Of a stretch of DNA of 28,442 bases, positions 1,464 through 27,046 are shown piece by piece. The DNA is from Spartobacteria bacterium (GTDB lineage: Bacteria > Verrucomicrobiota > Kiritimatiellia > RZYC01), in the NCBI GenBank assembly GCA_009929845.1, contig RZZM01000020.1, positions 1 through 28,442 of the forward strand. Direction: 5' to 3'. The translations under genes and the position numbers were made by a program. The notes below the pieces were generated by a model. The model did not search any database. It saw only the letters and a list, made by a program, of their open reading frames with translations, and was not told where the DNA came from. How positions within the stretch are numbered: the stretch's first letter is position 1; each line of letters starts with the position of its first letter.

Positions 1464-1789
1464 CAGAAATCAAGCTCCTTCTCTTTTTCTTGATGTACAT
1501 GTTTTGGTTGGCGTTTTTTCTCTAAATAAATGCCTGTTTTATCTGCTTCCGGAGCGGCCAACCCTTCCAGTGTTTTCCATAAGTCAAGCACCCACATACA
1601 GCTTAGAAATATCCCCAGGGCAACACCGGTAGAACCTTGCTCTAATCGAGAAATTGTGCGCCGTTCAACCCCGGTACGGGTTGCCAGCTCCTCTTTGCTC
1701 CATCGCCGCCGTACGCGAGCGGTCTGTATGCGTTCACCAAGGATACGAAGTTGCTTGTTAACTTCCTCTGGATATTTATAATGTCCCAT
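1463..1789 (-). CDS. hipB: HipB-like XRE-family helix-turn-helix antitoxin
   Basis: 108-aa ORF with an HTH segment KEELATRTGVERRTISRLEQG. It lies immediately upstream of hipA and is translationally coupled to it. An AT-rich promoter region sits upstream. Confidence 0.75.
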   Translation of the reverse strand: MGHYKYPEEVNKQLRILGERIQTARVRRRWSKEELATRTGVERRTISRLEQGSTGVALGIFLSCMWVLDLWKTLEGLAAPEADKTGIYLEKKRQPKHVHQEKEKELDF

Positions 1790-2005: not shown

Positions 2006-3379
2006 TCATTGGAGCCCTTCGATTTTTCCTGCGCCCTTGACGATGAACCAGACGAGCAGAAAGACCATGACGATCATGGCGGAAACGAACAGCATCTTTG
2101 TCCACTGTCCACCGAGATGCCGTCCGGACTTGAACTTCGGATTGCGCTCTTGTTCGCCCAGCGCATACCGGGTGGTCTGGATCGTCGGAACCGACTTCAC
2201 AACGGCGCTCACGTCATACATCGGGGCGCGGATTTCCTCGCCGCCATAAAGCACCGTGTAGCGCGCCAGTGGGTCGGGCAGGAAGACCACCTCGTAGACC
2301 AGTCCGGTGGCGATGACGCTATCGATCGCGAGTGAGGCGTTGTCCTGGTTAAAGACGGTGACCCTGTACTGCGCGAACCGCCGTTCACCATTCAGCGCCG
2401 CGGTAAGGTTGTCGTCTCTGAGATTTCCGATTTCGAATTTGTGGAGCGTGGTATCGGCCAGATTGCGCCATTCAGGTTTCGGCCCGCCCGGCGCGCCCTC
2501 GATGCGGAAACGGCGGCTGAAATTGCGGCTCGGTGTATCGAAACTGAAAGAGACCAGGGGCTGGCGATCGCTTTGAAAGGTCCAGATGGTCGCCTGCCGT
2601 TTCTCATCCGGCGCCATCGTCAATGCGCCGATCTCGCAGGCCGTGCGGAATGGCTCATCCGGTCGCGCGACAATCTTCTTCGCCTTAAGTTCGATATCTT
2701 CGATATGGATCGATTCATCCCGCATCCGGCGCCGCTCGACCTCACTGAATATCTGCCCCTCCCGCTTATCCGTGGTCACTTCAAAATCGTCCGCCGATTT
2801 TTGCTCGGTGAAGTTCGCGATATCGATCCGGAAGAACTCGAAATCCTGCCTGGGAATCTCGATCCGCGTATTTCTTACGTTGATGAAGCGCGAGTAGTCG
2901 TATATTTCCACATCGCGCACGATCTCGACCCATTGCCCGGGGCTGTGTCCGCCGTACACGGAAACAAACTTCTCGAAATTCCGATTCCCGGTCTTGAGCA
3001 GGAGCGCCTCCGGCGCCTTTTCCCCCTCGCCTTTCTGTACGAGGATGCCGGCGATATTGTCGTCGTCCCGTTCAAAGTCGAGTATCCTGGATGAAATGGC
3101 CGATTCGACTATCTGTGTAACCGTGTGAACCTTCTTTCTTAAATAGAACGGCACTTCAGCCCCGTTTTCATCGATCAGGCGGACATTCGCATAGGACCCG
3201 TCGGTCGATGCATACATATCATTATCCAGCAGAAACGAGCCGACTTCCCCCACGGTTACGTCGGGCACTTGCAGTTCCTTCTGATACGGAAACCGCCTGA
3301 CATCGATACGCGCATACGCCATCGTGGTAAAAGCCGTCACCATCAGTCCGACAAAAAAGATACGTTTCAGACGGCTCAT
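2006..3379 (-). CDS. DUF3999-like exported/membrane-anchored protein (conserved partner of DUF2339)
   Basis: The in-frame ATG at 3379 gives 457 aa. The N-terminus MSRLKRIFFVGLMVTAFTTMAYA looks like a signal peptide, and the C-terminus has a TM helix MLFVSAMIVMVFLLVWFIV. The ATG overlaps the TGA of the upstream gene (ATGA coupling). The longer ORF-track start at 3598 runs into the upstream gene and is rejected. The family assignment comes from recalled architecture and neighbourhood, not from a search. Confidence 0.5.
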   Translation of the reverse strand: MSRLKRIFFVGLMVTAFTTMAYARIDVRRFPYQKELQVPDVTVGEVGSFLLDNDMYASTDGSYANVRLIDENGAEVPFYLRKKVHTVTQIVESAISSRILDFERDDDNIAGILVQKGEGEKAPEALLLKTGNRNFEKFVSVYGGHSPGQWVEIVRDVEIYDYSRFINVRNTRIEIPRQDFEFFRIDIANFTEQKSADDFEVTTDKREGQIFSEVERRRMRDESIHIEDIELKAKKIVARPDEPFRTACEIGALTMAPDEKRQATIWTFQSDRQPLVSFSFDTPSRNFSRRFRIEGAPGGPKPEWRNLADTTLHKFEIGNLRDDNLTAALNGERRFAQYRVTVFNQDNASLAIDSVIATGLVYEVVFLPDPLARYTVLYGGEEIRAPMYDVSAVVKSVPTIQTTRYALGEQERNPKFKSGRHLGGQWTKMLFVSAMIVMVFLLVWFIVKGAGKIEGLQ

Positions 3380-5787
3380 GAGTCCTCCTCCCGCGCAAAT
3401 TTCGGCGCCGCTTTCAGATAGGCGAACGCGCCTATCAGGAGTGCCACGCCAACGATCAGGAAGGCCACAACACGGTAGATGGCTAGCGTTCCCTCCAGGT
3501 CCACCAGGAACACCTTGCCGACTACAATGGCGAAAAGCGCCAGTCCCGCAAGTCGCAGGGGGCGCAGGTTCTTCCCTATGCCGCCTCCGACAAAGCAAAC
3601 GGCAAACAGCGCCCAGAGTACCGAGATCCCTCCCGCCTGGAACGCCGGAAGTTTCCAGTACAGGAAGGCATTCAGTTCCAGCGTGCTGTAGGCGAAGAGC
3701 ATGAACAATCCGCCATAGCCATAGAGAGGCGCCATGGCTTCACCCTCTTCACGGCGTCGGAGCAGATGCCAGGCCAGCAGGAGCATGAAGAGAACGACGC
3801 CGAAATCGAGCAGTCGGGCCATGACATACGCGGCCCCGTATTCGATGAGCAACACGCCATGCGCATTCGGCTGCCACGAATACAGGTCGATGAGGAATAT
3901 CTTGAGCGCCGCGAATCCGAGAAAGAAGCTGGCCGCCATCATGTTCAACCAATCATCCGTATGGATGTAGCGCATCAGGAAATAGGCCCCCATGGCGCAC
4001 CAGACGACCGTGAGCATCGGAAGGCGCCACGCCATGTGGAACTTGAAGAAGGCATTAACCTCCAACTGGAGATATACAAAAAGGATGATGATGCCGGCCC
4101 AGTAGAAGATGGCCCGGAGCAGACTCGGCCGACCGACAACGGCGTCTTCCTCCGTTTTCGCTTCCGTCAGCCTCCGCCGCTTCTCCAGAAAGAACGCGCA
4201 GAATACGGAGGCAATGCTCATCCCGAAGGTCCACAACCGGTCAGACATTTGCGAAAGATAAACCTTGTAGGTTCCCACCCCACCTGATCGTGGATTCGGG
4301 AAGTTGCGGTACATATCAATGGTAGCCAGTTTGAAAAACACGACCCCATAGAGGAAATACGACAGACTGCGCAGGAAAGGACTGCCCAACTTCCCGCTCA
4401 ACCAGAGGAATAAAAACGCCAACAGCGCCCAACTCATGGTGAGCGACTCTTTTTCCAATACCAGCGGCATCGTCAACGAGGTATAGAAGCCGGCCAGCGC
4501 AACCAGCGCGATCAGCAGGGTCCGATCCCCGCGTTTCGCCTTAAGAAACGCGAAGACATGAGCGATGAAGAACACCGCCAGCGCGGTGGTGAGTATGGAC
4601 GGCCACGGACGCCCGTGCGTATAACGGATCACGCCATAGGCCAACAGAGAGAAGATGAACGCATTGGCGACAAGATAAATGATCTCGAGGATCGTGACCT
4701 TCTCATCACGCGCCACGTTGTACCAGTACACGATGGACGTGTGCAGGGCGAACAGGAGCGACATCAGCGTGATGACGACAGGAAAGTCCGTCTTCTCGAA
4801 ACCAAACAGCGAGGCACAAATCATCAGCCACGTCAGCGCGAAGCCCAGATAATTCAAAAGGCGCCACGGTTTGAAATGCGAGAGGGCAAGAATGCCCCCG
4901 CCGAGTATAAAGAGGTAGGAATAGAGCACGAGGAAGTTTGCTTCGCCTGTGCTCAGCAGAATAGGGGTGCTGAAACCGCCAATGATGCCAAGGATCGCGA
5001 TCAACATGGAATCCGTGCGCACGGCCAGCAAACCTGCCGTAATCGTGATAAGGATCATCATCACAAAAGCCGACCAGATGGGGATCAGTTCGAACTGCGG
5101 CCCCGCCGCATACATGCTGTAGTAGAGGATAGCCAGGCCGCCTCCGATGAAGCCTTGCCCCATCAGGTGATACTTCTTCCCCAGCAGGCGATAGCCCCAT
5201 ATCAAGAGCCCCACACCCGCGATAATCGCCATACCGGTCCGTCCCATCGGCCCGATCAGATCACGCTCGATCGACCATTTGAGAAAATAGGCGACACACG
5301 CCACGATGACAATAATGCCGGCGCGAAGCAGCCATGTGCTCGCCACCGCGAACTCGACGCTGACGCCTTCCTTTCGGTACTCATCACCCACCAGAATCCA
5401 CTCCCAAATCCGCCCGAGAATTCCCGCGACCTTCGAAGGTTCCCGCGGCGCTTTTGCTGTGGATATTGCGGGTGCGGACGCGCGGGCCGTTTCCACATGG
5501 GGCTTCGGTTGAGTCGGGAGCGGCGGTGGCGCGACCACAGAAGGTCGCGCCGACTCATCCGACTTCATCGGCGCCGGCTCCTGCCAGACCTCCTTCATCT
5601 CTTCCCGCTCAGCGGCCGGGGATGGTTCTGCCGCTCTCGGGGTTGGCTGTGAAGCTATGATCTTCTTCAACTGATAGTTGAGCGATTTTTGATCGTTCTG
5701 CATCTCGTTGATCCGGCGCGCAATAGAAGAGAGCTGCAGCAGGGTAATGATCGCCAGCACCAACAGTATCGCGAGAAAGAGTTCCAT
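3376..5787 (-). CDS. DUF2339-like large polytopic membrane protein
   Basis: 803 aa. The N-terminus has a hydrophobic helix, a coiled-coil-like segment and a Pro-rich linker (PPPLPTQPKP), followed by more than 15 hydrophobic TM-like segments. GAGG lies 6 nt upstream of the ATG. The stop overlaps the start of the downstream DUF3999-like gene. Confidence 0.55.
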   Translation of the reverse strand: MELFLAILLVLAIITLLQLSSIARRINEMQNDQKSLNYQLKKIIASQPTPRAAEPSPAAEREEMKEVWQEPAPMKSDESARPSVVAPPPLPTQPKPHVETARASAPAISTAKAPREPSKVAGILGRIWEWILVGDEYRKEGVSVEFAVASTWLLRAGIIVIVACVAYFLKWSIERDLIGPMGRTGMAIIAGVGLLIWGYRLLGKKYHLMGQGFIGGGLAILYYSMYAAGPQFELIPIWSAFVMMILITITAGLLAVRTDSMLIAILGIIGGFSTPILLSTGEANFLVLYSYLFILGGGILALSHFKPWRLLNYLGFALTWLMICASLFGFEKTDFPVVITLMSLLFALHTSIVYWYNVARDEKVTILEIIYLVANAFIFSLLAYGVIRYTHGRPWPSILTTALAVFFIAHVFAFLKAKRGDRTLLIALVALAGFYTSLTMPLVLEKESLTMSWALLAFLFLWLSGKLGSPFLRSLSYFLYGVVFFKLATIDMYRNFPNPRSGGVGTYKVYLSQMSDRLWTFGMSIASVFCAFFLEKRRRLTEAKTEEDAVVGRPSLLRAIFYWAGIIILFVYLQLEVNAFFKFHMAWRLPMLTVVWCAMGAYFLMRYIHTDDWLNMMAASFFLGFAALKIFLIDLYSWQPNAHGVLLIEYGAAYVMARLLDFGVVLFMLLLAWHLLRRREEGEAMAPLYGYGGLFMLFAYSTLELNAFLYWKLPAFQAGGISVLWALFAVCFVGGGIGKNLRPLRLAGLALFAIVVGKVFLVDLEGTLAIYRVVAFLIVGVALLIGAFAYLKAAPKFAREEDS

Positions 5788-9936: not shown

Positions 9937-14442
<4,506 letters not shown>

Positions 14443-14712: not shown

Positions 14713-14790
14713 GCGCACCCTGCAACTGTTCTCCCTAACCACCTGCATATCTGCTTGCCTGCCCGCGCGCTATCCTGCTATGGTGTGACC

Positions 14791-15891
14791 ATGAAGCAAT
14801 TTGACACCATACTGCATCTCGCGAACGATACGGCGCTGCCCGATTATTTGATGATTAAACAGTTTGACTGTCCGCGGCACATCATGGCGGTCTCCCACGA
14901 CACCGAACCGGCCTTCAACCTTTTGCAGGGTGTGCTTGGCAAGGAGGGTTGCCACACGGAGAAACTGAATATTCCCGTGGACGATGTGAACACCTGTCGG
15001 CGCCGGCTGGAGAAGGTGGTGACCAGCCTGCCTGAAGGGCGGCACGCCGTCAATCTTACCGGCGGTTCCCGCGTCATGTTTGCCGCCCTTTTTGAGATCG
15101 CCCGGCGCCACGGGCTGCCCGCCGTGCTCCTCGATACCAAAGCAAAGGCCATGCACTGGCTGGATGAGGAGGGCCTCAGCGAACCGCTGCGTCCGGTATT
15201 CCGCGAGGCAACAGGGTTTATCCGCCTGGCCGGCTATGATGTGGACGCCGAGGCGCCAGCCGAACACCTGCGAGTGGCGAACGAACGCCGCGATGCCGCC
15301 ATGGCCTGCTGGCAATATCGCGACCACATCGGCATCTGGAGCAAATCCCTGCGCAACCAAGCCGCGAAACCCGGCCTGCCGTTCCGCGACGGCCCCCGGA
15401 AAATCAAGGGCGTGGAGGTCTCCGCCGTGCTCAAAAAAGAGTCGGACGGCAGCAAGGGCATCCTGCACATCGGCGAGCACGCCTTTACGCTCAAACCCTG
15501 GAAAGACCTGGCTTCATTCATCGCGGGGGGCTGGTACAGGGATGCCGTGCTGGCCAACCTCATGACCCTCAAACACAAGGGCGTCATTCTCGATGTGGCC
15601 CTCGGCGTCAACCCTTCCCCGTCGGCCAAAAACCCGAAGGGACATCTGCCCGCCATGGATATCCTTTATACCGACGGGATCAACCTGACTGTCGTGGATT
15701 GTTACCTGCGATGGAGCGACAACCGGGTCATCCGCCAGGTGGTCCGGCAGGTCCGGCAACTGGCCGGTGATTTTGGCCGCGGCATCCTGGCCGTCGCCTA
15801 TGAAAACGAAAAAGCCCCCCCGAAGAGCGGCCCCACCGTAACCATCCTTTCCGGTCCCGCCGCCGTCTCCCACCCGGAGCACTTTCTCTGA
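14791..15891 (+). CDS. CARF-domain protein with C-terminal DUF1887 / Card1-Can2-like nuclease-fold region (VC1899-like), 366 aa
   Basis: N-terminal Rossmann-like region with the CARF signature VNLTGGSRVMFAALFEIA (h-N-h-T-G-G-S/T-K/R). The C-terminal half has GGWYRDAVLANL (cf. the GxWxExxV helix of PD-(D/E)xK nucleases) followed by ILDVALGV and AMDILYTDG strands. No canonical ExK is visible. Alternative starts are TTG at 14755 and GTG at 14785. No strong SD. The family call rests on motif recognition only. Confidence 0.5.
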   Translation: MKQFDTILHLANDTALPDYLMIKQFDCPRHIMAVSHDTEPAFNLLQGVLGKEGCHTEKLNIPVDDVNTCRRRLEKVVTSLPEGRHAVNLTGGSRVMFAALFEIARRHGLPAVLLDTKAKAMHWLDEEGLSEPLRPVFREATGFIRLAGYDVDAEAPAEHLRVANERRDAAMACWQYRDHIGIWSKSLRNQAAKPGLPFRDGPRKIKGVEVSAVLKKESDGSKGILHIGEHAFTLKPWKDLASFIAGGWYRDAVLANLMTLKHKGVILDVALGVNPSPSAKNPKGHLPAMDILYTDGINLTVVDCYLRWSDNRVIRQVVRQVRQLAGDFGRGILAVAYENEKAPPKSGPTVTILSGPAAVSHPEHFL

Positions 15892-16132: not shown

Positions 16133-16816
16133 ATGGGTCTCATTCAACGTTTAAAGCGGATCACCTCCGCGCGCATTGAGTCATTTCTCAGTTCTGTCGA
16201 GGATCCGGAGGTATTGTTTCCTCAGTTAGTCAGGGAAATGGAAGACCAGGTTCGGGCGGCCACCGAAGCGGAGGCCAAGGCCAAGGCGGCGGTCAAGCAC
16301 GCGCAACGCGATGTGGATCAACTCCGGGAGAAGATCGAGTACTACGGTATCGGGGCGAAGAAGGCGATTGACGGCGGCGACGAGGGCATGGCGAGGGAAG
16401 CCATCAGCGCGCAGTTGAATGTCGAGGAAGCGCTGGAGCGGAAGCAGGCGGTCCTGGAACGGGCGGATGACGTGTATGAAGACGCGCGCAGCGCCCGCGA
16501 ACGTATTCAACGCCAGTTGGAAGAATTGCGCGCCAAGAAGGATGAAATCCTCACACGCGCCCGCGTGGCGAAAAACCAGCTCGAGATTCAACGGACGGTC
16601 AGCGGACCGGTCACGTCGTCGGGCAGCATCCTGGACGCGATCGAGCGGCTGGAGAGCCGGATCGAGGAACAGGAAGCGGAGCTGGAGATTCAGCAAGCGG
16701 CGTCGGGGGATGTGGACGCATCCCTGGACGAGCGGCTGGACGCGATGGCGGACACAACCGCCGTGGATGAACGCCTGGCCGCGTTGAAGCGCAAAATTGC
16801 TGAAGACAAGCAATAA
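16133..16816 (+). CDS. pspA: PspA/IM30 (Vipp1) family protein, paralogue 1 (227 aa)
   Basis: N-terminal amphipathic helix MGLIQRLKRITSARIESFLSSVEDPE is characteristic of PspA/IM30. The protein is a long coiled coil. AGGAAAG lies 7 nt upstream of the ATG. Confidence 0.9.
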   Translation: MGLIQRLKRITSARIESFLSSVEDPEVLFPQLVREMEDQVRAATEAEAKAKAAVKHAQRDVDQLREKIEYYGIGAKKAIDGGDEGMAREAISAQLNVEEALERKQAVLERADDVYEDARSARERIQRQLEELRAKKDEILTRARVAKNQLEIQRTVSGPVTSSGSILDAIERLESRIEEQEAELEIQQAASGDVDASLDERLDAMADTTAVDERLAALKRKIAEDKQ

Positions 16817-16921
16817 CCAGGCAGATTGGTCAGCGGGGGGATGGGCCCATGTTGTACCGGGCTCCTTCTCCCTGCCGGGAATGCATCCGTACGACGCTTA
16901 ACAACGGAAAGGTGGGATACC

Positions 16922-17593
16922 ATGTCTATTTTTGAACGCATACGAAGAATTACACTCGCCAACATCAACAGCCTGCTCGACAAGGCCGAGGACCCGGAAA
17001 CCATGCTCACGCAGAAGATCACCGAGCTGGAAGAGACCGTGCAGGAGGCCAAGGAGGCGCTGGCCGGATTCTCCGTTTCCTTTCGCAGGTCGGAAAATGA
17101 ATTCAACGCGCTGCGGCAGAAACGGGATGAATGGAAAGAACATGCCGTCCATGCCCTCAAAAACAATGATGAAGCGCAGGCGACAAAGGCGCTGCAGGAG
17201 AAGGTGAAAATCGAGCAGCGACTGGAGCGGCTGGAGCCCTCGCTGCGCGAGAGCCGGCATACCTTCGAGCAGTTGAAGGAGCAGTTGACACGTCTGCACG
17301 ATCAACTCAACGCAGCCCGGAATAAAATGGCGGAATTGAAATCCCGCCAACGTTCGGCAGCCGCGCAGCAGGCCTTCGGACGGAGCGTGGACCAGATGGC
17401 GGCCTCGGGGGTGCGGGGCGACGAATTCAACCAGATGGAAGACCAGGTCGCGCAGACCGAATCCCTCGTGGAAATCGAACGGGAAATGCGCGGCGATATC
17501 CTCACGGAACAGGATATGGAGGCCATGACACGCGACATGAAGGTCTCCAACGAACTCGAGGCCCTGAAAAAAGAGCTGGGCAGGCAGGAGTAA
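16922..17593 (+). CDS. pspA: PspA/IM30 family protein, paralogue 2 (223 aa)
   Basis: MSIFERIRRITLANINSLLDKAEDPE N-terminus. AGGTGG SD about 8 nt upstream of the ATG at 16922. The ORF-track start at 16826 lacks an RBS and would add a non-PspA leader. Confidence 0.9.
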   Translation: MSIFERIRRITLANINSLLDKAEDPETMLTQKITELEETVQEAKEALAGFSVSFRRSENEFNALRQKRDEWKEHAVHALKNNDEAQATKALQEKVKIEQRLERLEPSLRESRHTFEQLKEQLTRLHDQLNAARNKMAELKSRQRSAAAQQAFGRSVDQMAASGVRGDEFNQMEDQVAQTESLVEIEREMRGDILTEQDMEAMTRDMKVSNELEALKKELGRQE

Positions 17594-17598
17594 CGATT

Positions 17599-18246
17599 GT
17601 GGGTTTAACGGCCAGGCTCAAGCAGGTGACCAAGGCGCGTGTCGAGGCGTTTCTCGACCGGGCCGAGGACCCCGCGACCGTGTTCCCGCGGCTCGTGAAC
17701 GAGCTGGGCGCCCAGATTCAGGCCCTGAAACACGCGGAGGCCAAGGCGATGTCGGCAGTAAAATCCGCCCAACGAAAACTGGATGAAGTTTCCGGCCGGG
17801 AGGCCCGCCTGGAAAAAGGCGCTGAACTGGCGCTGAAGCTGGGTGATGAGCAGACGGCCCGGGAGGCCCTGACGGTGCAGGTGAAACTTGCCGGCGTGAA
17901 AACCGAACGGGCCCGGGCAGTCGAACAGGCCGAAAAAGACCATGAAGAGGCCCTGCGCACGCGACTGCGCATGGAGGCCTTGTTGGAGGACCTGAAATCA
18001 CGCGCGGGTGAGTATGCCTGCGAGGTTGATTTCACCCGGGCGTTGCCTCATAATCGCCGTCAACAGCGCACACAGGTGTCGCTGCTTGACGCGGTTGCGC
18101 GCATGGAAGGGCGCCTCGATGAGGTCGATGAAGGCTATACGCAGCGCATGGCGCAAAGCGGGCTTACGCTGGAACGGAAGCTTCGGCTGATGGAACGGCA
18201 GCGGATTGTCGAGCAGCGTCTTCAGGCGTTGAAACAGGGTTGTTGA
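17599..18246 (+). CDS. pspA: PspA/IM30 family protein, paralogue 3 (215 aa), GTG start
   Basis: MGLTARLKQVTKARVEAFLDRAEDP N-terminus. GTG start with AGGAG 8 nt upstream, overlapping the stop of paralogue 2 (5-nt gap). Confidence 0.85.
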   Translation: MGLTARLKQVTKARVEAFLDRAEDPATVFPRLVNELGAQIQALKHAEAKAMSAVKSAQRKLDEVSGREARLEKGAELALKLGDEQTAREALTVQVKLAGVKTERARAVEQAEKDHEEALRTRLRMEALLEDLKSRAGEYACEVDFTRALPHNRRQQRTQVSLLDAVARMEGRLDEVDEGYTQRMAQSGLTLERKLRLMERQRIVEQRLQALKQGC

Positions 18247-18293
18247 GTGGTTGGGTTTACCTGCCGGAAGCCGGCAGTAAGGAGTGTAGAGGT

Positions 18294-18965
18294 ATGGAAG
18301 CATTAACAGACTTTTTGTCGGCCTGTGTGGCTATGATCAATCTGCCGTATACGATTCTTTTCCTGGCGATGATCATGTATTGGGTGGCGGTCATTGTCGG
18401 CGCCATGGACCTGGATCTACTGGAGTTTGATATTCCGGTGGATGCGGATGTGGGGTCGGCGCTGGATGCGGATGTGGATGGCGATGTCGATATCGCGGGG
18501 GATGGGTTTCTCCGGTCCCTGCTGCAGTATCTTAATGTTGGCGAAGTGCCGGTTACCATCATTCTGAGTATCTTCATTATCAGTTTATGGGCAATCGCCA
18601 TCGTCGCGAATTATTATCTGAATCCCATGCGGTCGGTGCTGCTGTCGTTTGCGATTTTTGTGCCCAATGTGATTATCAGCATACACATGGCGAAATTCTT
18701 CACCATGCCGCTGGTCAAGGTGTTCAAATCATTGAATGAGGGCGCGGAAGACCCGGGCAGGGATTTGAGCGGGAAAGTGTGTGTGGTGAAGACAAGTGAA
18801 GCAAACGGGACATTTGGCCAGGCGGAGATCAAGACAAAGGGGGTCCCGGTCCTGGTGAATGTGCGGACAGACAACGGCGAGGTTTTGAAAAAAGGAACGG
18901 AAGCCGTGGTGGTGGAAAAGGCAGACAAGGGTGTATATATCATAAGCAAACTGGACTTGGAATAA
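18294..18965 (+). CDS. NfeD-like (YqiJ-like) membrane protein with C-terminal OB-fold beta domain
   Basis: 223 aa from the ATG at 18294 (AGGAG 8 nt upstream). Three or four TM segments (ILFLAMIMYWVAVIVGA, VTIILSIFIISLWAIAIV, LLSFAIFVPNVIISI) with an acidic loop DADVGSALDADVDGDVD. The C-terminal soluble domain is GKVCVVKTSEANGTFGQAEIKTKGVPVLVNVRTDNGEVLKKGTEAVVVEK. It is positioned directly upstream of a flotillin gene, as in yqiJK-type pairs. Confidence 0.7.
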   Translation: MEALTDFLSACVAMINLPYTILFLAMIMYWVAVIVGAMDLDLLEFDIPVDADVGSALDADVDGDVDIAGDGFLRSLLQYLNVGEVPVTIILSIFIISLWAIAIVANYYLNPMRSVLLSFAIFVPNVIISIHMAKFFTMPLVKVFKSLNEGAEDPGRDLSGKVCVVKTSEANGTFGQAEIKTKGVPVLVNVRTDNGEVLKKGTEAVVVEKADKGVYIISKLDLE

Positions 18966-18991
18966 ACACATAAAAAAGAAGGAGGCAGATC

Positions 18992-20974
18992 ATGGTGGCA
19001 GGTATTGTAGGACTGATTGTTATTGGCGTGTTATTTGTATTGGTGATGGGGATGCTGGCGATGCTGGTGAAATGCTATCACAAGGTGCATCAGGGCTCCG
19101 CCATTATTCGAAACGGGTGGGGCGGGCGAAAGGTGTCGTTCGCCGGTATCTTTGTGCTGCCGATCATTCATCATCGCGAATTGATGGATATTTCGGTGAA
19201 GCGTATCGAGATCGACCGCACCGGCTCGGAAGGGCTCGTGTGCCAGGATAATATGCGCGCCGACGTGAAGGTGGCCTTCTTTGTGCGCGTCAATGAGACC
19301 GCCGAAGATGTGCTGCGCGTCGCGCAGTCGTTGGGTTGCGAGCGCGGTTCAAGCCCGCAGGCGCTCATCGAGTTCTTCGATGCGAAGTTTTCTGAAGCAT
19401 TAAAGACGGTCGGCAAAAAATTCGACTTTGTAGAGCTGTATACCAATCGCGATACGTTTAAGGAAGAAATCCTGAAGGTGATCGGCACGGACCTGAACGG
19501 CTACGTGCTGGACGACGCCGCCATCGACTATCTGGAACAGACCAATCTGGACAAGATGGACCCGAATAACATCCTGGACGCGGAAGGCATCAAGAAGATT
19601 GTGGACTTGACGGCCAAACAGGCGGTATTGGCCAACAACATAGCCCGCGAAAAAGAAAAGACCATCAAGAAGCAGGATGTCGAAGCGCGCGAGGCCATTC
19701 TTCAGCTCGAACGTCAGCAGGTGGATGCGGAACAGAAGCAGGGCCGTGAGATTGCGGAAGTGACGGCGCGCGAACAGGCGGAAGCCAAAAAGGTGGAAGC
19801 GGAAGAGCTGTTGAAATCGGAACGGGCGCGTATCGCCACGGCGGAAGAGGTGGCCATTGCGGAAGAAAACAAGGACCGCCAGATCATCGTCGCCAAAAAG
19901 AGCAAAGAACGTACGGAGGCGGTCGAGCAGGAACGTGTCATTAAAGACCGCGATCTGGAGGCCACGGAACGCGAACGGGTGGTCACCCTCGCGCAGATAG
20001 AAAAAGAAAAGGCCGTCGAGGTCGAGAAGAAGAACATGCAGGAAGTGGTGCGTGAACGTGTCGCGGTGGAGCGTACGGTGGTCGAGGAAGAGGAAAAGAT
20101 CAAAGATACCCATGAATTCGCCACCGCCGACCGTTCCAAGCAAGTAGCCATTACCAAGGCCCAGGAGGACGCCGAACAAATACTGATCAAACAGACCAAG
20201 GCGGCTGAAGCACAGCGCGATGCCTCCAAATTTGGCGCCGAGCAGGTGGTCATCGAGGCCCAGGCCCAGCGAGACGCCTCCGAAAGGGAAGCGGAAGCGC
20301 GCAAGATACTGGCGGACGCGAAGGCCGAGGAAGAAGCGGTCATCGGCGTCGGCGAGGCCCGTGCGCTTGAAGCCAAGGCCACCGCTACGGAGCAGTTCGG
20401 CCTGGCGGAAGCCCGGGTCATCGAGAAGAAGGCCAACGCCGACGCCAACGGCATCCGCGACAAGGCCGAGGCGATGAAGCTCTTTGATTCCGTCGGCAAG
20501 GAACACGAAGAATTCAAGCTGCGGCTGAACAAGGACCTCGAGATCGAACTGGCGGCCATTCGCGTGGAACAGGAAATCGCCAAGGAACAATCCGCCATCG
20601 TGGGCGAGGCGCTCAAGAGCGCCCACATCGATATCGTCGGCGGGGAATCAGAATTCTTTGACAAGATTGTCAACGCGGTCACGCGCGGGAAAGTGGTGGA
20701 CCGCATTGTGGACAACAGCCGGGTGCTGACGGACATTACCGACACCTTCTTCAGCGGGGACGCGGCGCAGTTCAAGGAGCAGCTTGCCCGGTTTGTTTCG
20801 CAGTTCGGCATGGGTAGCGAGGATGTCAAAAACCTGACCCTCTCGGCCCTGCTGGCGAAAATGACCGCCCAGACGGACAACGAGCGGACTCAGGCCCTTC
20901 TGGAAAAGGCCGCCCAGGCCGCCGCCAAGCTGGGGCTGTCGGACAAGCTGGCCTCCAGCATCCTGAAGAAATAG
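18992..20974 (+). CDS. flotillin-like SPFH/band-7 family protein (YqiK/FloT-like), 660 aa
   Basis: N-terminal TM helix MVAGIVGLIVIGVLFVLVMGMLAMLV, then an SPFH-type domain, then a long Glu/Ala-rich coiled coil typical of flotillins (EA-repeat region aa about 230-500). Strong GAAGGAGG SD. Confidence 0.85.
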   Translation: MVAGIVGLIVIGVLFVLVMGMLAMLVKCYHKVHQGSAIIRNGWGGRKVSFAGIFVLPIIHHRELMDISVKRIEIDRTGSEGLVCQDNMRADVKVAFFVRVNETAEDVLRVAQSLGCERGSSPQALIEFFDAKFSEALKTVGKKFDFVELYTNRDTFKEEILKVIGTDLNGYVLDDAAIDYLEQTNLDKMDPNNILDAEGIKKIVDLTAKQAVLANNIAREKEKTIKKQDVEAREAILQLERQQVDAEQKQGREIAEVTAREQAEAKKVEAEELLKSERARIATAEEVAIAEENKDRQIIVAKKSKERTEAVEQERVIKDRDLEATERERVVTLAQIEKEKAVEVEKKNMQEVVRERVAVERTVVEEEEKIKDTHEFATADRSKQVAITKAQEDAEQILIKQTKAAEAQRDASKFGAEQVVIEAQAQRDASEREAEARKILADAKAEEEAVIGVGEARALEAKATATEQFGLAEARVIEKKANADANGIRDKAEAMKLFDSVGKEHEEFKLRLNKDLEIELAAIRVEQEIAKEQSAIVGEALKSAHIDIVGGESEFFDKIVNAVTRGKVVDRIVDNSRVLTDITDTFFSGDAAQFKEQLARFVSQFGMGSEDVKNLTLSALLAKMTAQTDNERTQALLEKAAQAAAKLGLSDKLASSILKK

Positions 20975-21022
20975 GGTGATAGACGCGTGGGACCGCAGTC
21001 ACATCTAAAGAACAGAGATACG

Positions 21023-21048
21023 GAAGGGGCGCGGGCGCGTCCCTTCCG
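21023..21048 (+). other. GC-rich stem-loop in the flotillin/AAA+ intergenic spacer
   Basis: ggaaggggcgcg gg cgcgtcccttcc forms an 11-12 bp stem (one G-U) with no following U-tract, 20 nt before the ATG at 21069. Confidence 0.4.
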
Positions 21049-21068
21049 GAAACTACCGGGGTCGTCGT

Positions 21069-24000
21069 ATGGCTGAGCAATCAAAAAAGAATCCTGAACA
21101 GGCGATTGATACGCCGGAGCATGAAAAAACACAATTGGATGCGGGCGCGTATGAGATTATTCGCAAACGCCTGGCCGGGCATGGCCAGGCGCTGGGGGCG
21201 CGCCTGGAGCAACTCGACGCGGAGCGCAAACGGGTTTTCGGGTCCATTGAGACCAGCCTGGTCAACACGGTAAAAATCCCAACCGAGAACAACTGCATCC
21301 CCCGCGACATGATGGCCCTGGGGGAGGTGGTGCTCTTCGGCTACAATGTGCATATCGGATTGCGCAGCGAGGTCTACCTGAATGATGTTTTCGCGGTGTA
21401 CACCTTCGCGGATAACGCCTTCCAGTCGCGTTCGCTGGACGTGATTGCCGATGAGCGCTTCGAGGCCGATTTCAAGGACCTCTATCGCTACTACAAGAAA
21501 ACGCGGTTCGCGAAATTTGCGCGCATAGGCGCGTACATGTACATGGTATTCCAGATTGGCAGCGACGATCGGGATATTAAGGCGTTCAAGTGGCATGTCG
21601 ATGACGCCGGGACGCTGACCTATGTGGACAACCGGTCTGACCACGAGGTGAAATTTCCGCCGCAACACGAGTTTACCTGGGTGCGCACCCACCGGGATAT
21701 GCAGCGCGACGGGGTGAATCCGCATGTCTCCATCAATGATGTGATTTTCGTGGAAACCGTCGGCGGCGACCTCACCGTCAAGATTGAGGACAACACCGAC
21801 ACCGGCGAAGGCATCTACAGCGAGCCCGTGGATGATCCGGACCAGGTGCTGGATGACGCGGATATTTTTTATGCTGACCTGGGCAGTTTGATTCTGCTGA
21901 AGATACGCCCTTATCAGGAGCAGCGCTACCGCTATCTCGTGTACAGCCGCAAGATGCAGCAGGTCACCCGCATCGATACCATCGAGGATTCCTGCGTGCT
22001 GCTGCCCAACGAACACGGCATTATCTTCTCCAATGGCTACTATCTCCAGAGCGGCGAGCACAAGGAATATGAAAGCGACCTGCTCAACATGCTCTTTGAA
22101 AAAAAGGTGGCCTCGCCCAACGGCGAGGATGTGCTGTATGTCTTTTACAACCAGGCCAGCGGAACCTATGAGCTGCTCTCGTATAATGTGATTCGCCAGC
22201 GCATCGAAACGCCTATGGTCTGCCACGGTTATTGCCTGTTCGACAACGGGAAACTGATCTATTTCAAGGCCGGGGACAATCCCGTCAAGACCCATACGGT
22301 CCAGATTTGGCAGACCCCGTACATCGAGGATGAGCACGAAATCAATGCCGACAAAAATTCGTATCTTTTCAAGATCGGCAACAGCGATATTGTTCGTTGC
22401 ATGGCCGCCTGCCGGGCGGTCATCAACCTGGCGAACCGCGAGGATTCCTACGAAAACCTGTACCTCGACCTGGTCAAGCAGACGACGGAGACGATGGATA
22501 CCTTCTTCTGGCTCGATCATGCGGAGGTTTTCAACCTCAAGGAATGCATGGTGGGCATCCATGACGCCGCCTCGGCGGCGATGGATGAATTCGAGAAGGT
22601 CCTGAACCTGAAAAAGAACAGCCGTGAGCAGGTCGCCGCCGTGGCCGAAAAATGCAAAAAGATATTGGCGGCCGCGCAGACGGCGCACTTCAAGGTGATT
22701 GATGAATTCGTCACCCTGTTGAGCGAAATGCGGACCCTTCGCGGCGAGATCATCGCGTTGCGGGATCTGCGGTACGTGGATGAGGCGCGCCTGGAAGAAC
22801 TTGAAGAGGCGGTCACTTCAGAAACCGAAAAGGTTGCGCGTCACTGCGTGGAATTTTTGCTTAAACCCGAGGCCCTTCATCCCTACCAGGAGCGCGTTGC
22901 GGAGATTCAGCAGCAGGTGGCCAAGGTCGGCAAAGTGGCCGACGCCAAAAAGATTGATGAAGCGGTGGCGTCCGCCGCCGGTGAGCTGGAAATGCTGATT
23001 GATGTGGTCAGCAACCTGAACATCGAAGATGCCACGCAGCGAACGGATATCATCGACGGGATTTCCGCCATTTTTTCCTCGTTGAACCGCGTGCGCAGCG
23101 CCCTCAAGAACCGCATGAAAGAGCTGGCCTCGGTGGAAGGCATTGCCGAATTTGCCTCGCGGGTCAAACTGCTGGACCAGGCGGTTATCAATTACCTGGA
23201 TGTATGCGATAGCGCCGATAAGTGCGAAGAATACCTGGGCAAGGTGATGCTCCAGCTCGAAGAACTGGAGGGGGCCTTTGCCGATTATGATGAATTTGTC
23301 GAACAGTTGGCCGAAAAACGCGAGGAGATCTACAACACGTTTGAAACGCGCCGCCTGAAGCTGGTGGAGGAGCGCAACCGCCGAACGGATACCCTCATGC
23401 GCAGCGCCGAGCGTATGCTCAAGGGCATCCGGACACGCGCGGAAGGCATGGACAGCAACGAGGCCATTCACGCCTATTTTGCGTCGGACCTGATGGTGGA
23501 CAAAGTGCGCAATGTCATCCGGCAGTTGACGGAACTCAATGACACGGTCAAGGCCGGGGATATCCAGGCCCAACTGAAGACGATCCGGGAAAACGCGGTT
23601 CGGCAGTTGAAGGATAAACAGGAACTCTTCCTGGACGGCCAGAATGTCATTGCCTTTGGCCGCCACCATTTCTCCGTCAACACACAGACGCTGGATTTGA
23701 CCACCGTACTGCGCGGCGAGGCGATGTACCTGCATCTGACCGGAACGGATTTCTTTGAAGAGATCACGGAGGACACCTTCCTGGCGACCCGCGACGCGTG
23801 GCGGCAGGATGTGGTTTCGGAAACCGCGGCGGTCTACCGGGGCGAATACCTGGCGTACCTTTTATTCCAGGCCGCGCAGGCGGTCGGCGCCGATCCGTCC
23901 CTGGCGGCGTTGGCGGCGTTTTCGGAGGAGGAGAGCCTGGCCTATGTGCGCGGGTACATGGGCCCACGATTCAGCGAGGGCTACATCAAGGGCGTGACGG

Positions 24001-26339
24001 ACGGGGACGCGGTGAAGATACTGCAGGCGGTCCTGTCCCTGCATACAAGCCTGGGGTTGCTGCGGTTCCGCGCGAAGGCCCGCGCCCTGGCCGTGGTGTT
24101 CTGGCGGCAATGCCCGGAGGACGGGGACAGACAACTGCTGCTGGGCAAGCTCTCGGGCTTCGGCAAACTGTTGCGTGTGTTCCCGGAGGAGCCGCGCCAA
24201 CGCGAGTATATTATCGAGCTGACCGAACGAATATCCGCCTTTGCAAAACGGTACAATACCCTGTTTGATGAGGAGGACGCGCGGGAAGCCGGCGAGTATC
24301 TTTTTGCGGTGCTGACCGGGGACGGACAGCATCCAGTCAGCCGGGAAGCCGCCGATATCCATACGGGCTTCATCGGCATGCTGAAAAAAGCGAATGCCGA
24401 AAAGGAATTTCGGCAGGCCCGCGAAGAGGTGGCCGACGATCCATGTTCAGCCTACTCGGTCATTCGTGACTGGGTGGAGGCCTTTTTGAACCAGGATGCC
24501 GGGGCGTGCGACCCGGGGTATCGCGATGAAGCGGCCGCCCTGTTTTTTTCCGGTGACTATGATGTCAAGCGGGTGATTGATGTGCCCGCCCGGCGCGACC
24601 TGGCGGATATGGCCGGGGAACACCCCCTGATCGCAAAGGGGCTTTACGTGTTCAACTATCATGATTTCATGAGGCGGTTGCATCATCATCAGACCGTCGT
24701 TGTGCCGATGTACGAACAATACCAGGACATGAAGAAGGCCTGGCTCGTGCGTGAACGCGAGGCCATGCGACTGGCTGAATTCATGCCGCGGGTGTTGACC
24801 TCCTTTGTGCGCAACCAGTTGTTGGACCGGGTCTATCTTCCGTTGGTGGGGGACAATCTGGCCAAACAGATTGGCGTGGTCGGCGAGGAAACCCGAACCG
24901 ATCGTATGGGGCTGCTCATGCTGATTTCACCGCCGGGCTACGGCAAAACAACACTGATGGAATATATCGCCAACCGGCTGGGGCTGGTCTTCATGAAAAT
25001 CAACGGTCCGGCCATCGGATGCCATGTGACCTCCCTGGATCCGGAGGAAGCGCCAAATGCCGCCGCGCGCGAGGAATTGAAGAAGCTGAACCTGTCCCTT
25101 GAGATGGGGGATAACGTGATGCTGTATGTCGATGATATCCAGCATTGCAATCCGGAGTTTTTGCAGAAATTTATTTCGTTGTGCGACGCACAGCGGAAGA
25201 TCGAGGGCGTGTACAAGGGCCGTTCCAGCACCTATGACCTGCGCGGGAAGACTGTGGCCGTGGTGATGGCCGGCAACCCTTACACGGAGAGCGGCGAAAT
25301 GTTCAAGGTCCCGGACATGCTGGCCAACCGCGCCGACACCTACAACCTGGGCGATATCATCGGCGACAATGCGGACGCCTTCAAGCTCAGCTACATTGAA
25401 AATGCGCTGACCTCTAATCCGGTGACCAACCGCCTGGCGGCCCGCAGCCGGGATGACATCTACGCCATGATCCGGCTGGCGGAAACCGGGTCCAGGGAAG
25501 GCATCGATTTCGAGGGCAATTATACCGTCGAGGAAACCAACGAGTATGCCTCCGTCATCAAAAAGATATTGCGCATACGCGATGTCGTGCTGACCATGAA
25601 CATGGCCTATATCCATTCCGCCGCTCAGGCGGATGAATTCAGGACGGAGCCGGCGTTCAAACTGCAGGGGTCCTACCGCAACATGAACCGCATGGCCGAA
25701 AAGGTGCAGGCCATCATGAATGACCGTGAACTTGAAACCATGATCTTTTCGCACTATGAAAATGAAGCGCAAACCCTGACCACCGGCGCGGAAGCGAATC
25801 TACTGAAATTCAAAGAGCTGTTGAATATCATGAGCGAGGAGGAAAAGGCCCGCTGGGCGGATATCAAGCGCACCTTTGGACGCAACCAGTTATTCCGCGG
25901 TGTGGAAGGGGACGACAAACTCGGGCAGGTCATTGTGCAGTTGAGCACCTTCCGCGAAGGACTGGAGGATATCGGCAAAGCCCTCTCCGGGTTGGCCGAA
26001 CCGCGCAAGGGCATTACTTCGCTGGATGGGGTGGTCGAAACGCGGCTGGCGCCCGAAACCCTCCAGGCGTTGTCATCCGCATTCGGCGGCCTTAGGGAGT
26101 CTGTCGCCGGGATGAAAGAGGAACTGTCGCGAGCCGCGGAGCAAAAACCGGGCATTGATCCGGAACTCATAAAAATGCTCGAACAACAATTTTCCCGGAT
26201 GCAGGGATGGCTGGACCCCAAGGAAGTCGCCCTGAAAGGCACGATTGAGGAAGTGGAAATACTGCGGCACCGCATGAAAGATGCCGCGGAGAACTATCAC
26301 TATCTGCTTGAGCAGCTTGGACGGGGCGGAGTACGCTAA
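21069..26339 (+). CDS. very large (1756 aa) multidomain protein with a single MoxR/AAA_5-like AAA+ ATPase module and long coiled coils
   Basis: Walker A LISPPGYGKTT (about nt 24930-24953). Walker B VMLYVDDIQH (about nt 25116-25145). Sensor-1 and downstream motif VAVVMAGNPYTESGEMFKVPDMLANRAD resemble the MoxR/AAA_5 pattern NP...G...LPxAxxDRF. The N-terminal roughly 470 aa is beta-rich with unknown fold. aa about 480-1000 is predicted coiled coil. No TM segments. Confidence 0.8.
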   Translation: MAEQSKKNPEQAIDTPEHEKTQLDAGAYEIIRKRLAGHGQALGARLEQLDAERKRVFGSIETSLVNTVKIPTENNCIPRDMMALGEVVLFGYNVHIGLRSEVYLNDVFAVYTFADNAFQSRSLDVIADERFEADFKDLYRYYKKTRFAKFARIGAYMYMVFQIGSDDRDIKAFKWHVDDAGTLTYVDNRSDHEVKFPPQHEFTWVRTHRDMQRDGVNPHVSINDVIFVETVGGDLTVKIEDNTDTGEGIYSEPVDDPDQVLDDADIFYADLGSLILLKIRPYQEQRYRYLVYSRKMQQVTRIDTIEDSCVLLPNEHGIIFSNGYYLQSGEHKEYESDLLNMLFEKKVASPNGEDVLYVFYNQASGTYELLSYNVIRQRIETPMVCHGYCLFDNGKLIYFKAGDNPVKTHTVQIWQTPYIEDEHEINADKNSYLFKIGNSDIVRCMAACRAVINLANREDSYENLYLDLVKQTTETMDTFFWLDHAEVFNLKECMVGIHDAASAAMDEFEKVLNLKKNSREQVAAVAEKCKKILAAAQTAHFKVIDEFVTLLSEMRTLRGEIIALRDLRYVDEARLEELEEAVTSETEKVARHCVEFLLKPEALHPYQERVAEIQQQVAKVGKVADAKKIDEAVASAAGELEMLIDVVSNLNIEDATQRTDIIDGISAIFSSLNRVRSALKNRMKELASVEGIAEFASRVKLLDQAVINYLDVCDSADKCEEYLGKVMLQLEELEGAFADYDEFVEQLAEKREEIYNTFETRRLKLVEERNRRTDTLMRSAERMLKGIRTRAEGMDSNEAIHAYFASDLMVDKVRNVIRQLTELNDTVKAGDIQAQLKTIRENAVRQLKDKQELFLDGQNVIAFGRHHFSVNTQTLDLTTVLRGEAMYLHLTGTDFFEEITEDTFLATRDAWRQDVVSETAAVYRGEYLAYLLFQAAQAVGADPSLAALAAFSEEESLAYVRGYMGPRFSEGYIKGVTDGDAVKILQAVLSLHTSLGLLRFRAKARALAVVFWRQCPEDGDRQLLLGKLSGFGKLLRVFPEEPRQREYIIELTERISAFAKRYNTLFDEEDAREAGEYLFAVLTGDGQHPVSREAADIHTGFIGMLKKANAEKEFRQAREEVADDPCSAYSVIRDWVEAFLNQDAGACDPGYRDEAAALFFSGDYDVKRVIDVPARRDLADMAGEHPLIAKGLYVFNYHDFMRRLHHHQTVVVPMYEQYQDMKKAWLVREREAMRLAEFMPRVLTSFVRNQLLDRVYLPLVGDNLAKQIGVVGEETRTDRMGLLMLISPPGYGKTTLMEYIANRLGLVFMKINGPAIGCHVTSLDPEEAPNAAAREELKKLNLSLEMGDNVMLYVDDIQHCNPEFLQKFISLCDAQRKIEGVYKGRSSTYDLRGKTVAVVMAGNPYTESGEMFKVPDMLANRADTYNLGDIIGDNADAFKLSYIENALTSNPVTNRLAARSRDDIYAMIRLAETGSREGIDFEGNYTVEETNEYASVIKKILRIRDVVLTMNMAYIHSAAQADEFRTEPAFKLQGSYRNMNRMAEKVQAIMNDRELETMIFSHYENEAQTLTTGAEANLLKFKELLNIMSEEEKARWADIKRTFGRNQLFRGVEGDDKLGQVIVQLSTFREGLEDIGKALSGLAEPRKGITSLDGVVETRLAPETLQALSSAFGGLRESVAGMKEELSRAAEQKPGIDPELIKMLEQQFSRMQGWLDPKEVALKGTIEEVEILRHRMKDAAENYHYLLEQLGRGGVR

Positions 26340-26369: not shown

Positions 26370-26425
26370 AAGAGGCTCGTTGTTCAGGCTTCAGCCTGCC
26401 GCGCACGGCGAGCCGCGCATGTTTC
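26370..26425 (+). repeat. repeat family copy A (about 56 nt, direct)
   Basis: aagaggctcgttgttcaggcttcagcctgccgcgcacggcgagccgcgcatgtttc. It contains a palindromic core caggcttcagcctg. Confidence 0.8.
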
Positions 26426-26584
26426 ACGCTGAAAATGCCGAAAAACGTCCGATTTTCAGTAAAAAATGCCGAAATTTTTCCGAAAATGGCCCATTTTTGC
26501 GCTAAAAACAGTAAAAATTGCCGTTTTTGGCCTATTTTTGTTGGATTTTTGTCGTTTTGCACTGTTGCGCGCACGCGTACTCGG

Positions 26585-26627
26585 CATGTGGCTCGCCGCG
26601 CGTGGCAGGCTGAAGCCTGAACAACGA
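26585..26627 (-). repeat. repeat family copy B (inverted, partial)
   Basis: catgtggctcgccgcgcgtggcaggctgaagcctgaacaacga is an approximate reverse complement of copy A, with a 24-nt exact core ggcaggctgaagcctgaacaacga. Confidence 0.7.
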
Positions 26628-26721
26628 ACGGGCAGGCTGACGCCTGGACAAGACATCGTTTCGCCGGGTTGTGACCGTGGTGAAATCCGTTGGTTATCCT
26701 ATCCGTCCGGAGGCTATTCGG

Positions 26722-26777
26722 AAGAGGCTCGTTGTACAGGCTTCAGCCTGCAGCGCACGGCGAGCCGCGCATGTTTC
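26722..26777 (+). repeat. repeat family copy C (about 56 nt, direct, about 95 percent identical to A)
   Basis: aagaggctcgttgtacaggcttcagcctgcagcgcacggcgagccgcgcatgtttc. Like copy A, it is followed by an AT-rich stretch rich in gccgaaaa and ccgaaaat words. Confidence 0.8.
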
Positions 26778-27046
26778 GTGAAAAAAACGCCGGAAAACGG
26801 CCGATTTCTGTTACAAATGCCCAAAAATTTGCCGAAAATTCGGCTATTTTGATCAAAAACGCCAATTTTTTCGTTTTTTCTGTGTTTGAACGGCGATTTT
26901 CTCGTTCTCTGTCCCCGTTCCTTGCGCTCCTGAATTTTTTTGTTTTAGCGCATATTTTCTTCCATACCCCGGGGTTAAAGATGTTAGCCCAGGGTTGACG
27001 CGACAAGCGCCTACCCTGGGTCCCGGATCACCCACGAGTACATCAA

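Follow-up and report, generated by a model that had tools for sequence, protein, structure and literature searches.

The subject of this report is a cluster of six co-directional genes in a 28,442-nucleotide stretch of DNA from a Spartobacteria bacterium (GenBank assembly GCA_009929845.1, contig RZZM01000020.1), which is called the window below. The cluster encodes three PspA/IM30 proteins, a YqiJ-like membrane protein, a long YqiK-like flotillin, and a giant MoxR-like ATPase. On balance, these genes probably form one conserved operon for a flotillin-centered machine that maintains or remodels membranes. The triad composed of the YqiJ-like protein, the YqiK-like flotillin, and the giant DUF3686 ATPase is found in conserved order across several phyla, and members of the giant ATPase family almost certainly act as partners for flotillins in bacteria. 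The three-PspA form is a rarer version of this flotillin-ATPase cluster, carried by some members of the PVC group (Planctomycetota, Verrucomicrobiota, and relatives), specifically Kiritimatiellota and Phycisphaerae. The six genes and the main domains of the ATPase have the following positions in the window.

16133-16816, + strand: PspA/IM30 paralog 1, 'position-1' lineage, 227 amino acids (PF04012)
16922-17593, + strand: PspA/IM30 paralog 2, 'position-2' lineage, 223 amino acids (PF04012)
17599-18246, + strand: PspA/IM30 paralog 3, the most diverged, 215 amino acids (PF04012)
18294-18965, + strand: YqiJ/YuaF-type (NfeD-like) multi-pass inner-membrane protein, 223 amino acids (YqiJ_N PF21001, BLASTP)
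18992-20974, + strand: long YqiK-like flotillin, 660 amino acids (BLASTP, hhalign against E. coli YqiK)
21069-26339, + strand: giant ATPase, 1756 amino acids (DUF3686, DUF7902, MoxR-like AAA+)
21192-22508, + strand: DUF3686 domain, residues 42-480 of the giant ATPase
22869-23123, + strand: DUF7902, residues 601-685 of the giant ATPase
24876-25703, + strand: MoxR-like AAA+ module, residues about 1270-1545 of the giant ATPase

The six open reading frames (ORFs) are separated by gaps of 105, 5, 47, 26, and 94 bp, and both coordinates and gaps agree exactly with an earlier interpretation made from the DNA letters without database searches (the sequence-only reading). An independent gene caller applied to the identical public contig, Logan SRR8327731_12484, returned the same six products of 227, 223, 215, 223, 660, and 1756 amino acids. 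Because no gap exceeds 105 bp, there is no room for extra genes inside the cluster. The statement that ribosome-binding sites are mostly good is also correct, in that AGGA/GGAG Shine-Dalgarno-like motifs lie 5′ of genes 1 to 5. Gene 2 begins with the ATG at 16922, preceded by an AAGGTGG Shine-Dalgarno sequence and in agreement with the independent gene call, and gene 3 begins with GTG. No terminator-like site was scored in the intergenic gaps of the cluster, and its base composition is the same as that of its flanks. A scan for sigma-70 promoters gave a site count no higher than that of shuffled sequence and no site 5′ of gene 1, and thus no promoter is claimed.

Genes 4 and 5 encode the flotillin and its membrane partner. 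The gene 4 protein narrowly passes the YqiJ_N model (PF21001; 25.5 bits versus a cutoff of 23) and aligns with E. coli YqiJ over 167 amino acids (BLASTP E=1e-5). The Pfam model for the NfeD C-terminal OB-fold (PF01957) has no match in this protein, and the Pontiella ortholog has a weak, sub-cutoff NfeD C-terminal match (E=0.0016). The gene 5 protein is 29% identical to the E. coli flotillin YqiK over 438 amino acids (BLASTP E=2e-46), and hhalign aligns the two with a probability of 100 across 415 columns (columns 15-444). Its architecture comprises an N-terminal transmembrane helix, an SPFH domain, a coiled coil rich in Glu, Ala, and Lys, and a conserved C-terminal region of ~215 amino acids. 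Sequence searches with this protein against Pfam, NCBIfam, and the PDB gave no match, and Pfam Band_7 failed to match it even at E<=1. Band_7 is matched by only three of 22 gene 5 orthologs (best E=2.5e-12), and a profile of all 22 recovered only a weak match to QmcA from the PDB (E=0.012). Judged from the alignments, gene 5 encodes a clear homolog of YqiK, and the Band_7 miss reflects the sensitivity of the hidden Markov model (HMM) rather than the identity of the protein. Failure of the family HMMs, which the sequence-only reading had named as a refuting outcome, was thus formally reached for this gene alone. Overall, five of the six family assignments made in the sequence-only reading hold in profile searches; the flotillin fails its expected Band_7 model, yet is a YqiK homolog.

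The gene 6 protein scores 620 bits against DUF3686 (residues 42-480), and its matches to AAA and AAA_5, around residue 1283, are marginal. A PDB profile match to p97 and RuvB was limited to the P-loop, which is insufficient for classification, and the structure of the protein was therefore predicted, with the N-terminal prediction spanning residues 1-720. In the model, DUF3686 opens with a long N-terminal helix and continues as an all-beta domain that resembles a propeller, and DUF7902 sits within a run of helical bundles and coiled coils. The AAA+ core has a pre-sensor-1 beta-hairpin and is closest in fold to MoxR members. It does not belong to the classical clade of Vps4, which lacks the pre-sensor-1 insert, and the protein has no MIT domain. 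The motifs present are Walker A (GYGKT, 1290-1294), Walker B (D1355-D1356), sensor 1 (N1403), R1421, and GSYRN (1534-1538); GYGKT, D1355, N1403, R1421, and GSYRN are invariant among 16 homologs. Because the Walker A motif, the Walker B aspartate, sensor 1, and the arginine do not vary, the giant protein is predicted to be an active ATPase and likely is one.

Characterized MoxR-type ATPases are maturation factors that work with VWA-domain partners. Members such as CbbQ, NorQ, and RavA have ~250-500 amino acids and use VWA adaptors, whereas the 1756-residue window protein has its own propeller-like and helical domains. The family is large, with >5,600 clusters at 90% identity matching the giant ATPase at E<=1e-10. 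The N-terminal domain alone retrieves 728 representatives at 50% identity, and the full-length members listed are mostly 1600-1900 amino acids long. Databases label the family 'DNA repair ATPase' or 'MoxR-like ATPase'. Two homologs (P0022 and P0116) carry additional HEAT-type or ankyrin repeat domains according to precomputed Pfam lists; if these repeats are N-terminal, they would make the N-terminus of the ATPase a variable adaptor.

Gene neighborhoods link the ATPase to flotillins. The survey covered the best 80 of 565 confirmed hits, all in species-representative genomes and encoding a homolog 44-55% identical to the window ATPase, and its proportions apply to relatives of this ATPase, not to the whole family. 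Kiritimatiellota, Planctomycetota, Verrucomicrobiota, Bacteroidota, Desulfobacterota, Clostridia, and Omnitrophota are represented. Loci, which are designated by L numbers, were annotated with phmmer and with HMMs made from the window proteins, and their ORFs were called mechanically. Among the 61 informative loci, which have >3.2 kb of upstream DNA, a long flotillin gene lies upstream on the same strand in 58 and a YqiJ-like gene in 54, with the YqiJ-like orthologs directly 5′ of the flotillin gene. An upstream PspA gene is found in 22 of the 61, always as a single copy. These 22 loci are mostly from Bacteroidota and their PspAs group with E. coli YjfJ; in one of them (L048), a CesT_Tir_1 gene (E=7e-56) is located just 5′ of the PspA gene. 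At another locus (L081), the ATPase is accompanied by the flotillin pair only, without PspA.

The arrangement in the window is far beyond chance, as many unrelated contigs share its gene order. The sequence-only reading had proposed a neighborhood survey as a check, and gene order is indeed conserved in relatives; such conservation marks the cluster as a functional system rather than an accidental grouping. Common to all variants is the flotillin pair, a hub to which the PspAs and the ATPase attach independently as add-on modules. Since this pair is the common denominator, a machine centered on the flotillin was ranked first among the explanations considered.

Contigs with three PspA genes were found through homologs of the third PspA of the window. 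The six-gene order of one (L088) is identical to that of the window, and another (L087) matches it in order, with a middle PspA that has diverged greatly. In Sedimentisphaerales (L086) the order is PspA-PspA-YqiJ-flotillin-ATPase-PspA, as it is in L111 and L121, and L089 has two PspAs. The cultured Kiritimatiellota species Pontiella desulfatans F1 (L094, CAAHFG010000001.1:188031-213121) carries three PspA genes, the YqiJ-like gene, an insert, the flotillin gene, and the ATPase gene. The insert is a 407-amino-acid gene (L094:6588-7811) with a weak match to an integrase core (rve). It is probably an insertion sequence, and expression of the genes downstream might be polarized in the cultured strain.

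A scan of metagenomes with an alignment of position-1 PspAs gave 29 loci, and wherever enough downstream DNA was available a second PspA gene follows. Class A loci have three PspA genes, in some cases followed by genes for a small membrane protein and a canonical Band_7 protein, and no giant ATPase. The full form is seen in L090 and L105 and the triplet in L096 to L100 and L104; in L096, the only other class A locus checked, no Band_7 gene occurs within about 5 kb 3′ of the triplet. Class B loci have the PspA-PspA-YqiJ-flotillin-ATPase-PspA order (L086, L111, L121, and partial copies), and class C loci have the order of the window. In Phycisphaerae-type loci (L086, L017, L059, and L121), the third PspA gene begins 17 to 33 bp after the ATPase gene; in L111 this distance is 154 bp. 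The canonical flotillin found in class A shows only distant similarity to the gene 5 protein (E=2e-4). Thus, the PspA triplet pairs with two different SPFH subfamilies, and the ATPase accompanies the long YqiK-like subfamily.

All three PspA proteins of the window exceed the PF04012 (PspA_IM30) gathering score of 33.9 bits, with 106, 127, and 42.7 bits for PspA1, PspA2, and PspA3, and so the call of three PspA/IM30 paralogs stands. They align over nearly their full lengths, helix alpha0 through alpha5, with solved Vipp1/PspA chains (residues 1-212, 1-218, and 1-222 among the three), and PDB matches have E values of 1e-17 for PspA1 (residues 1-222/223), 5e-22 for PspA2, and 5.5e-8 for PspA3. 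Each protein had also been said to keep an amphipathic N-terminal helix. The helix pattern is present in all three, but in a crude calculation the hydrophobic moment of PspA3 is low (0.17, versus 0.38 for PspA1, 0.44 for PspA2, and 0.42 for E. coli PspA). The reported lack of canonical Psp and Lia partners was also borne out, with PspB, PspC, PspF, LiaI, LiaF, and LiaH unmatched in the cluster and in the neighboring genes scanned.

Identity among the three paralogs is only 21-36%. PspA1 is 47-54% identical to the first-position PspAs of L086-L090, versus 29% and 36% to its own neighbors, and PspA2 is 40-42% identical to PspAs in the same position at other loci. Position-3 and downstream copies from all loci are 29-53% identical to one another, and the closest public relatives of PspA3 are only 45% identical. 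Because identity between loci at the same position is greater than identity between paralogs within the window, the divergence of the paralogs is judged to be ancient. A bootstrapped neighbor-joining (distance) tree of 224 columns, which is not decisive, places the position-2 PspAs in clades of their own with 100% bootstrap. The clade that includes PspA2 (100% bootstrap) contains the PspAs that occupy the second position in L086, L089, and L090, along with the lone PspA of Kiritimatiellota B12222. Position-1 and position-3 PspAs form one clade with E. coli PspA (98% support). Both identity and the tree indicate that the window PspAs group neither with YjfJ nor with the PspAs of Bacteroidota. 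These comparisons show an old triplication in which the order of the genes was retained, with gene position tracking paralog lineage clearly for position 2 and only loosely for positions 1 and 3.

The spacer that follows the first PspA gene (window 16817-16921) is consistently the longest gap across the loci compared. It contains a strong hairpin in Pontiella (L094:4089-4179, z=-4.3), L086 (1798-1895, z=-3.7), and L088 (4014-4080, z=-2.35); in the window it holds a GC-rich stem-loop that is no better than shuffled sequence (z=-0.45). Such a hairpin could serve as a partial terminator or mRNA stabilizer that tunes the stoichiometry of PspA1. A CII-like helix-turn-helix (HTH) protein (Pfam Phage_CP76, E=3.7e-9 in L001) also recurs beside PVC-type clusters and is a candidate for a dedicated regulator. 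Its gene lies directly 5′ of the first PspA gene on the same strand in L001 (6164-6679), L089 (9504-10004), and L113 (1277-1831); in L081 (6675-7163), L031, L032, L049, and L070 it is on the opposite strand. It sometimes overlaps the first PspA gene by 4 nt, and the window has no copy.

Contrary to the view that the system is uncharacterized, a related operon has already been described through comparative genomics (Ravi et al. 2024, mSystems, PMC11237479). That operon consists of genes for a CesT/Tir protein, one YjfJ-type PspA, a flotillin, YqiJ, and a propeller-AAA+ protein. The YqiJ-type protein, the transmembrane band-7 flotillin, and the AAA+ protein with propeller and coiled-coil regions are common to both arrangements, whereas the window has no CesT/Tir gene and encodes three PspAs of separate lineages. 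The published type is confirmed here in Bacteroidota loci such as L048, whereas the window form occurs in Kiritimatiellota and Phycisphaerae. The same study mentions adjacent PspA dyads and triads only for cyanobacteria. Thus, the window cluster is a three-PspA variant of an operon previously defined by computation only. An association of PspA with band 7, FloT, and NfeD proteins has also been noted in Acidobacteriota (Popp et al. 2022).

Other parallels are more limited. E. coli yqiJK and B. subtilis yuaFG are pairs of NfeD-like and flotillin genes, and genes 4 and 5 of the window encode YqiJ and YqiK homologs, likewise in this order and separated by a short gap. Next to the E. coli pair, unlike in the window, there is neither a PspA gene nor a giant ATPase gene. 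The window flotillin is 107 amino acids longer than YqiK, and only residues 13-442 align, such that its C-terminal ~215 amino acids have no aligned counterpart. The B. subtilis pspA-ydjGHI (samGHI) operon resembles the window by encoding PspA with an SPFH protein and membrane proteins, and its SPFH protein YdjI is required for localization of PspA to the membrane (Scholz et al. 2021, PMC8581546; a preprint by Baur et al. 2026 agrees). However, YdjI is soluble and is recruited by YdjG and YdjH, and that system has a single PspA and no ATPase. Like the window, archaeal and eukaryotic ESCRT-III and Vps4 systems (including CdvB paralogs and CdvC) place several superfamily paralogs beside an AAA+ ATPase, and in some archaea SPFH proteins are linked to them by context as well. 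The combination of ESCRT-III with Vps4 has been described as confined to archaea and eukaryotes. The window PspAs are of the bacterial PspA/IM30 type and not Snf7 proteins. Because its ATPase is MoxR-like, lies outside the classical clade, and carries no MIT domain, the comparison with ESCRT-III and Vps4 drawn in the sequence-only reading is an analogy at best.

Several observations weigh against a single machine built from all six gene products. Gene 6 has no obvious Shine-Dalgarno motif. In about 60% of ATPase loci no PspA gene is adjacent, and in L084 the ATPase gene stands alone; the PspA link is lineage-specific for these reasons. A Pfam scan of the six cluster proteins, in which related loci were not specifically searched, detected no VWA domain, and accordingly no VWA partner for the ATPase was found in the cluster. 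Throughout the family (16 homologs compared), the second acidic residue of Walker B is Asp (D1356) rather than Glu, and turnover may consequently be slow or regulatory. Furthermore, the tree does not separate a position-1 from a position-3 placement for PspA3, and literature text searches found no paper on the ATPase family.

The sequence-only reading had suggested that the giant AAA+ protein could be a motor for PspA disassembly. On this account, it would be dedicated to disassembling or recycling a three-subunit PspA heteropolymer, as an analog of ESCRT-III with Vps4, and the flotillin and NfeD-like proteins would serve only as an anchor. PspA and Vipp1 do belong to the ESCRT-III superfamily (PMC7619361), three ancient paralogs in a kept order are expected of subunits with distinct roles, and PspA genes flank the ATPase gene on both sides in the four Phycisphaerae-type loci with the closest spacing. 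Even so, with PspA upstream in only 22 of 61 loci, and the flotillin and YqiJ-like protein as the steady partners, most ATPase loci would go unexplained. The triplets paired with a different SPFH protein at loci lacking the ATPase (L090 and L105) are a further difficulty, and the proposal cannot draw on Vps4 homology. A PspA-recycling role for the ATPase is possible in PVC lineages, but as a general explanation it is doubtful. A somewhat less probable proposal is that some PVC bacteria (Kiritimatiellota and Phycisphaerae) have independently arrived at an ESCRT-like machine, in which an ordered composite polymer of three specialized PspAs on a flotillin/NfeD platform would be remodeled or recycled by a giant MoxR-type ATPase acting as a nonhomologous counterpart of Vps4. 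The PVC group is noted for elaborate membrane organization.

It is quite unlikely that the cluster is merely two or three adjacent but independent units, namely a stress regulon of PspA genes, a yqiJK pair, and an ATPase gene without relation to them, with no common machine. Each module can be found without the others (the ATPase alone in L084, the triad without PspA in L081, and triplets without the ATPase in L090), and the 105-bp spacer after PspA1 carries a hairpin in some relatives that is strong enough that it could end a transcript. Yet the order and short gaps recur in Kiritimatiellota, Phycisphaerae, and many metagenome contigs, the other gaps are only 5 to 94 bp with no terminator-like site scored, and dependence of PspA on an SPFH protein has been demonstrated experimentally in B. 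subtilis (PMC8581546). An anti-phage or abortive-infection system acting on the membrane seems very improbable, despite a CARF nuclease gene immediately upstream, a HipA/HipB-like pair elsewhere in the window, and a PspA name derived from phage shock. A PADLOC search with the six proteins gave only coiled-coil noise, the CARF gene is beside the cluster in no other locus, and the triad, which many phyla possess, has housekeeping-type neighbors that vary by locus. There is hardly any prospect that the giant protein is a DNA repair ATPase unconnected to membranes. This label derives solely from the Pfam description of DUF3686, NCBI product names, and weak RuvB matches at the level of Walker A. 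Similarity to RuvB extends over only ~45 residues around the P-loop, Pfam detects no DNA-binding or nuclease domain in the protein, its gene is almost always 3′ of two membrane-protein genes, and no supporting paper emerged from a text search.

From the observed domain identities, gene order and linkage, paralog divergence, and conservation of ATPase motifs, we infer the following interactions and physiological role for the preferred flotillin-centered machine. The flotillin and its membrane partner would form a membrane-anchored oligomeric platform. By analogy with YdjI in B. subtilis, this platform might recruit PspA polymers to stressed or curved membrane. The three PspA paralogs would be nonredundant, and composite polymers or sequential assembly might occur. 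The giant ATPase, a cytoplasmic protein with long helical arms and a MoxR-type AAA+ ring module, could bind the platform via its N-terminal domains, and might spend ATP on building, reshaping, or recycling assemblies of the SPFH protein and the PspAs.

The window also contains genes and features outside the cluster. Just 5′ of the cluster, the gene at 14755-15891 (+ strand, probable start 14791, 378 amino acids) codes for a fusion of a CARF domain with a PD-(D/E)xK nuclease (PADLOC CARF4--CARF_PDDEXK, E=1.2e-37; weak match to Can2, 7bdv). This protein looks like a candidate stand-alone effector that senses cyclic oligonucleotides. It was considered as a regulator of the cluster and rejected, as it is a CARF nuclease that is not conserved beside the cluster elsewhere. 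Directly 3′ of the ATPase gene, positions 26370-26860 contain two direct copies of a 138-nt unit (78% identical and 352 nt apart) and 38-nt inverted arms that are 89-95% complementary (26377-26414, 26590-26627, and 26729-26766). This region may be a small repeat element, and the 128-amino-acid ORF within it (26466-26852) has no family match and is probably spurious. Farther away, a HipA-like kinase gene at 228-1789 (- strand; HipA_C, E=1e-48) adjoins one for a small HTH_31/HTH_3 protein, and judged by domain content the two look like a HipBA-type toxin-antitoxin pair. A candidate hybrid sensor kinase of 1501 amino acids (9937-14442, - strand), in which PAS/GAF-like regions, two receiver domains, and an Hpt domain were read from sequence, and an 803-amino-acid DUF2339 membrane protein (3376-5787, - strand; 237 bits) are also encoded, and neither gene is conserved beside the cluster in other loci.

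These findings have implications for both the ATPase family and the biology of PspA. The database label 'DNA repair ATPase' is very probably wrong for this family of proteins of 1600-1900 amino acids. According to a 2025 review (PMC7619361), the PspA duplications that composite polymers would require are present in fewer than 10% of lineages, in agreement with the earlier judgment that tandem triplets are unusual, and a Vps4-like ATPase is apparently absent from bacteria. The same review leaves open whether composite PspA polymers are built from several paralogs, and how assembly is regulated without a bacterial Vps4-like ATPase. For both questions this cluster offers a natural test case, with three old PspA paralogs that keep their gene order and are tied to an ATPase and an SPFH scaffold, and it occurs in a cultured organism, Pontiella desulfatans F1.

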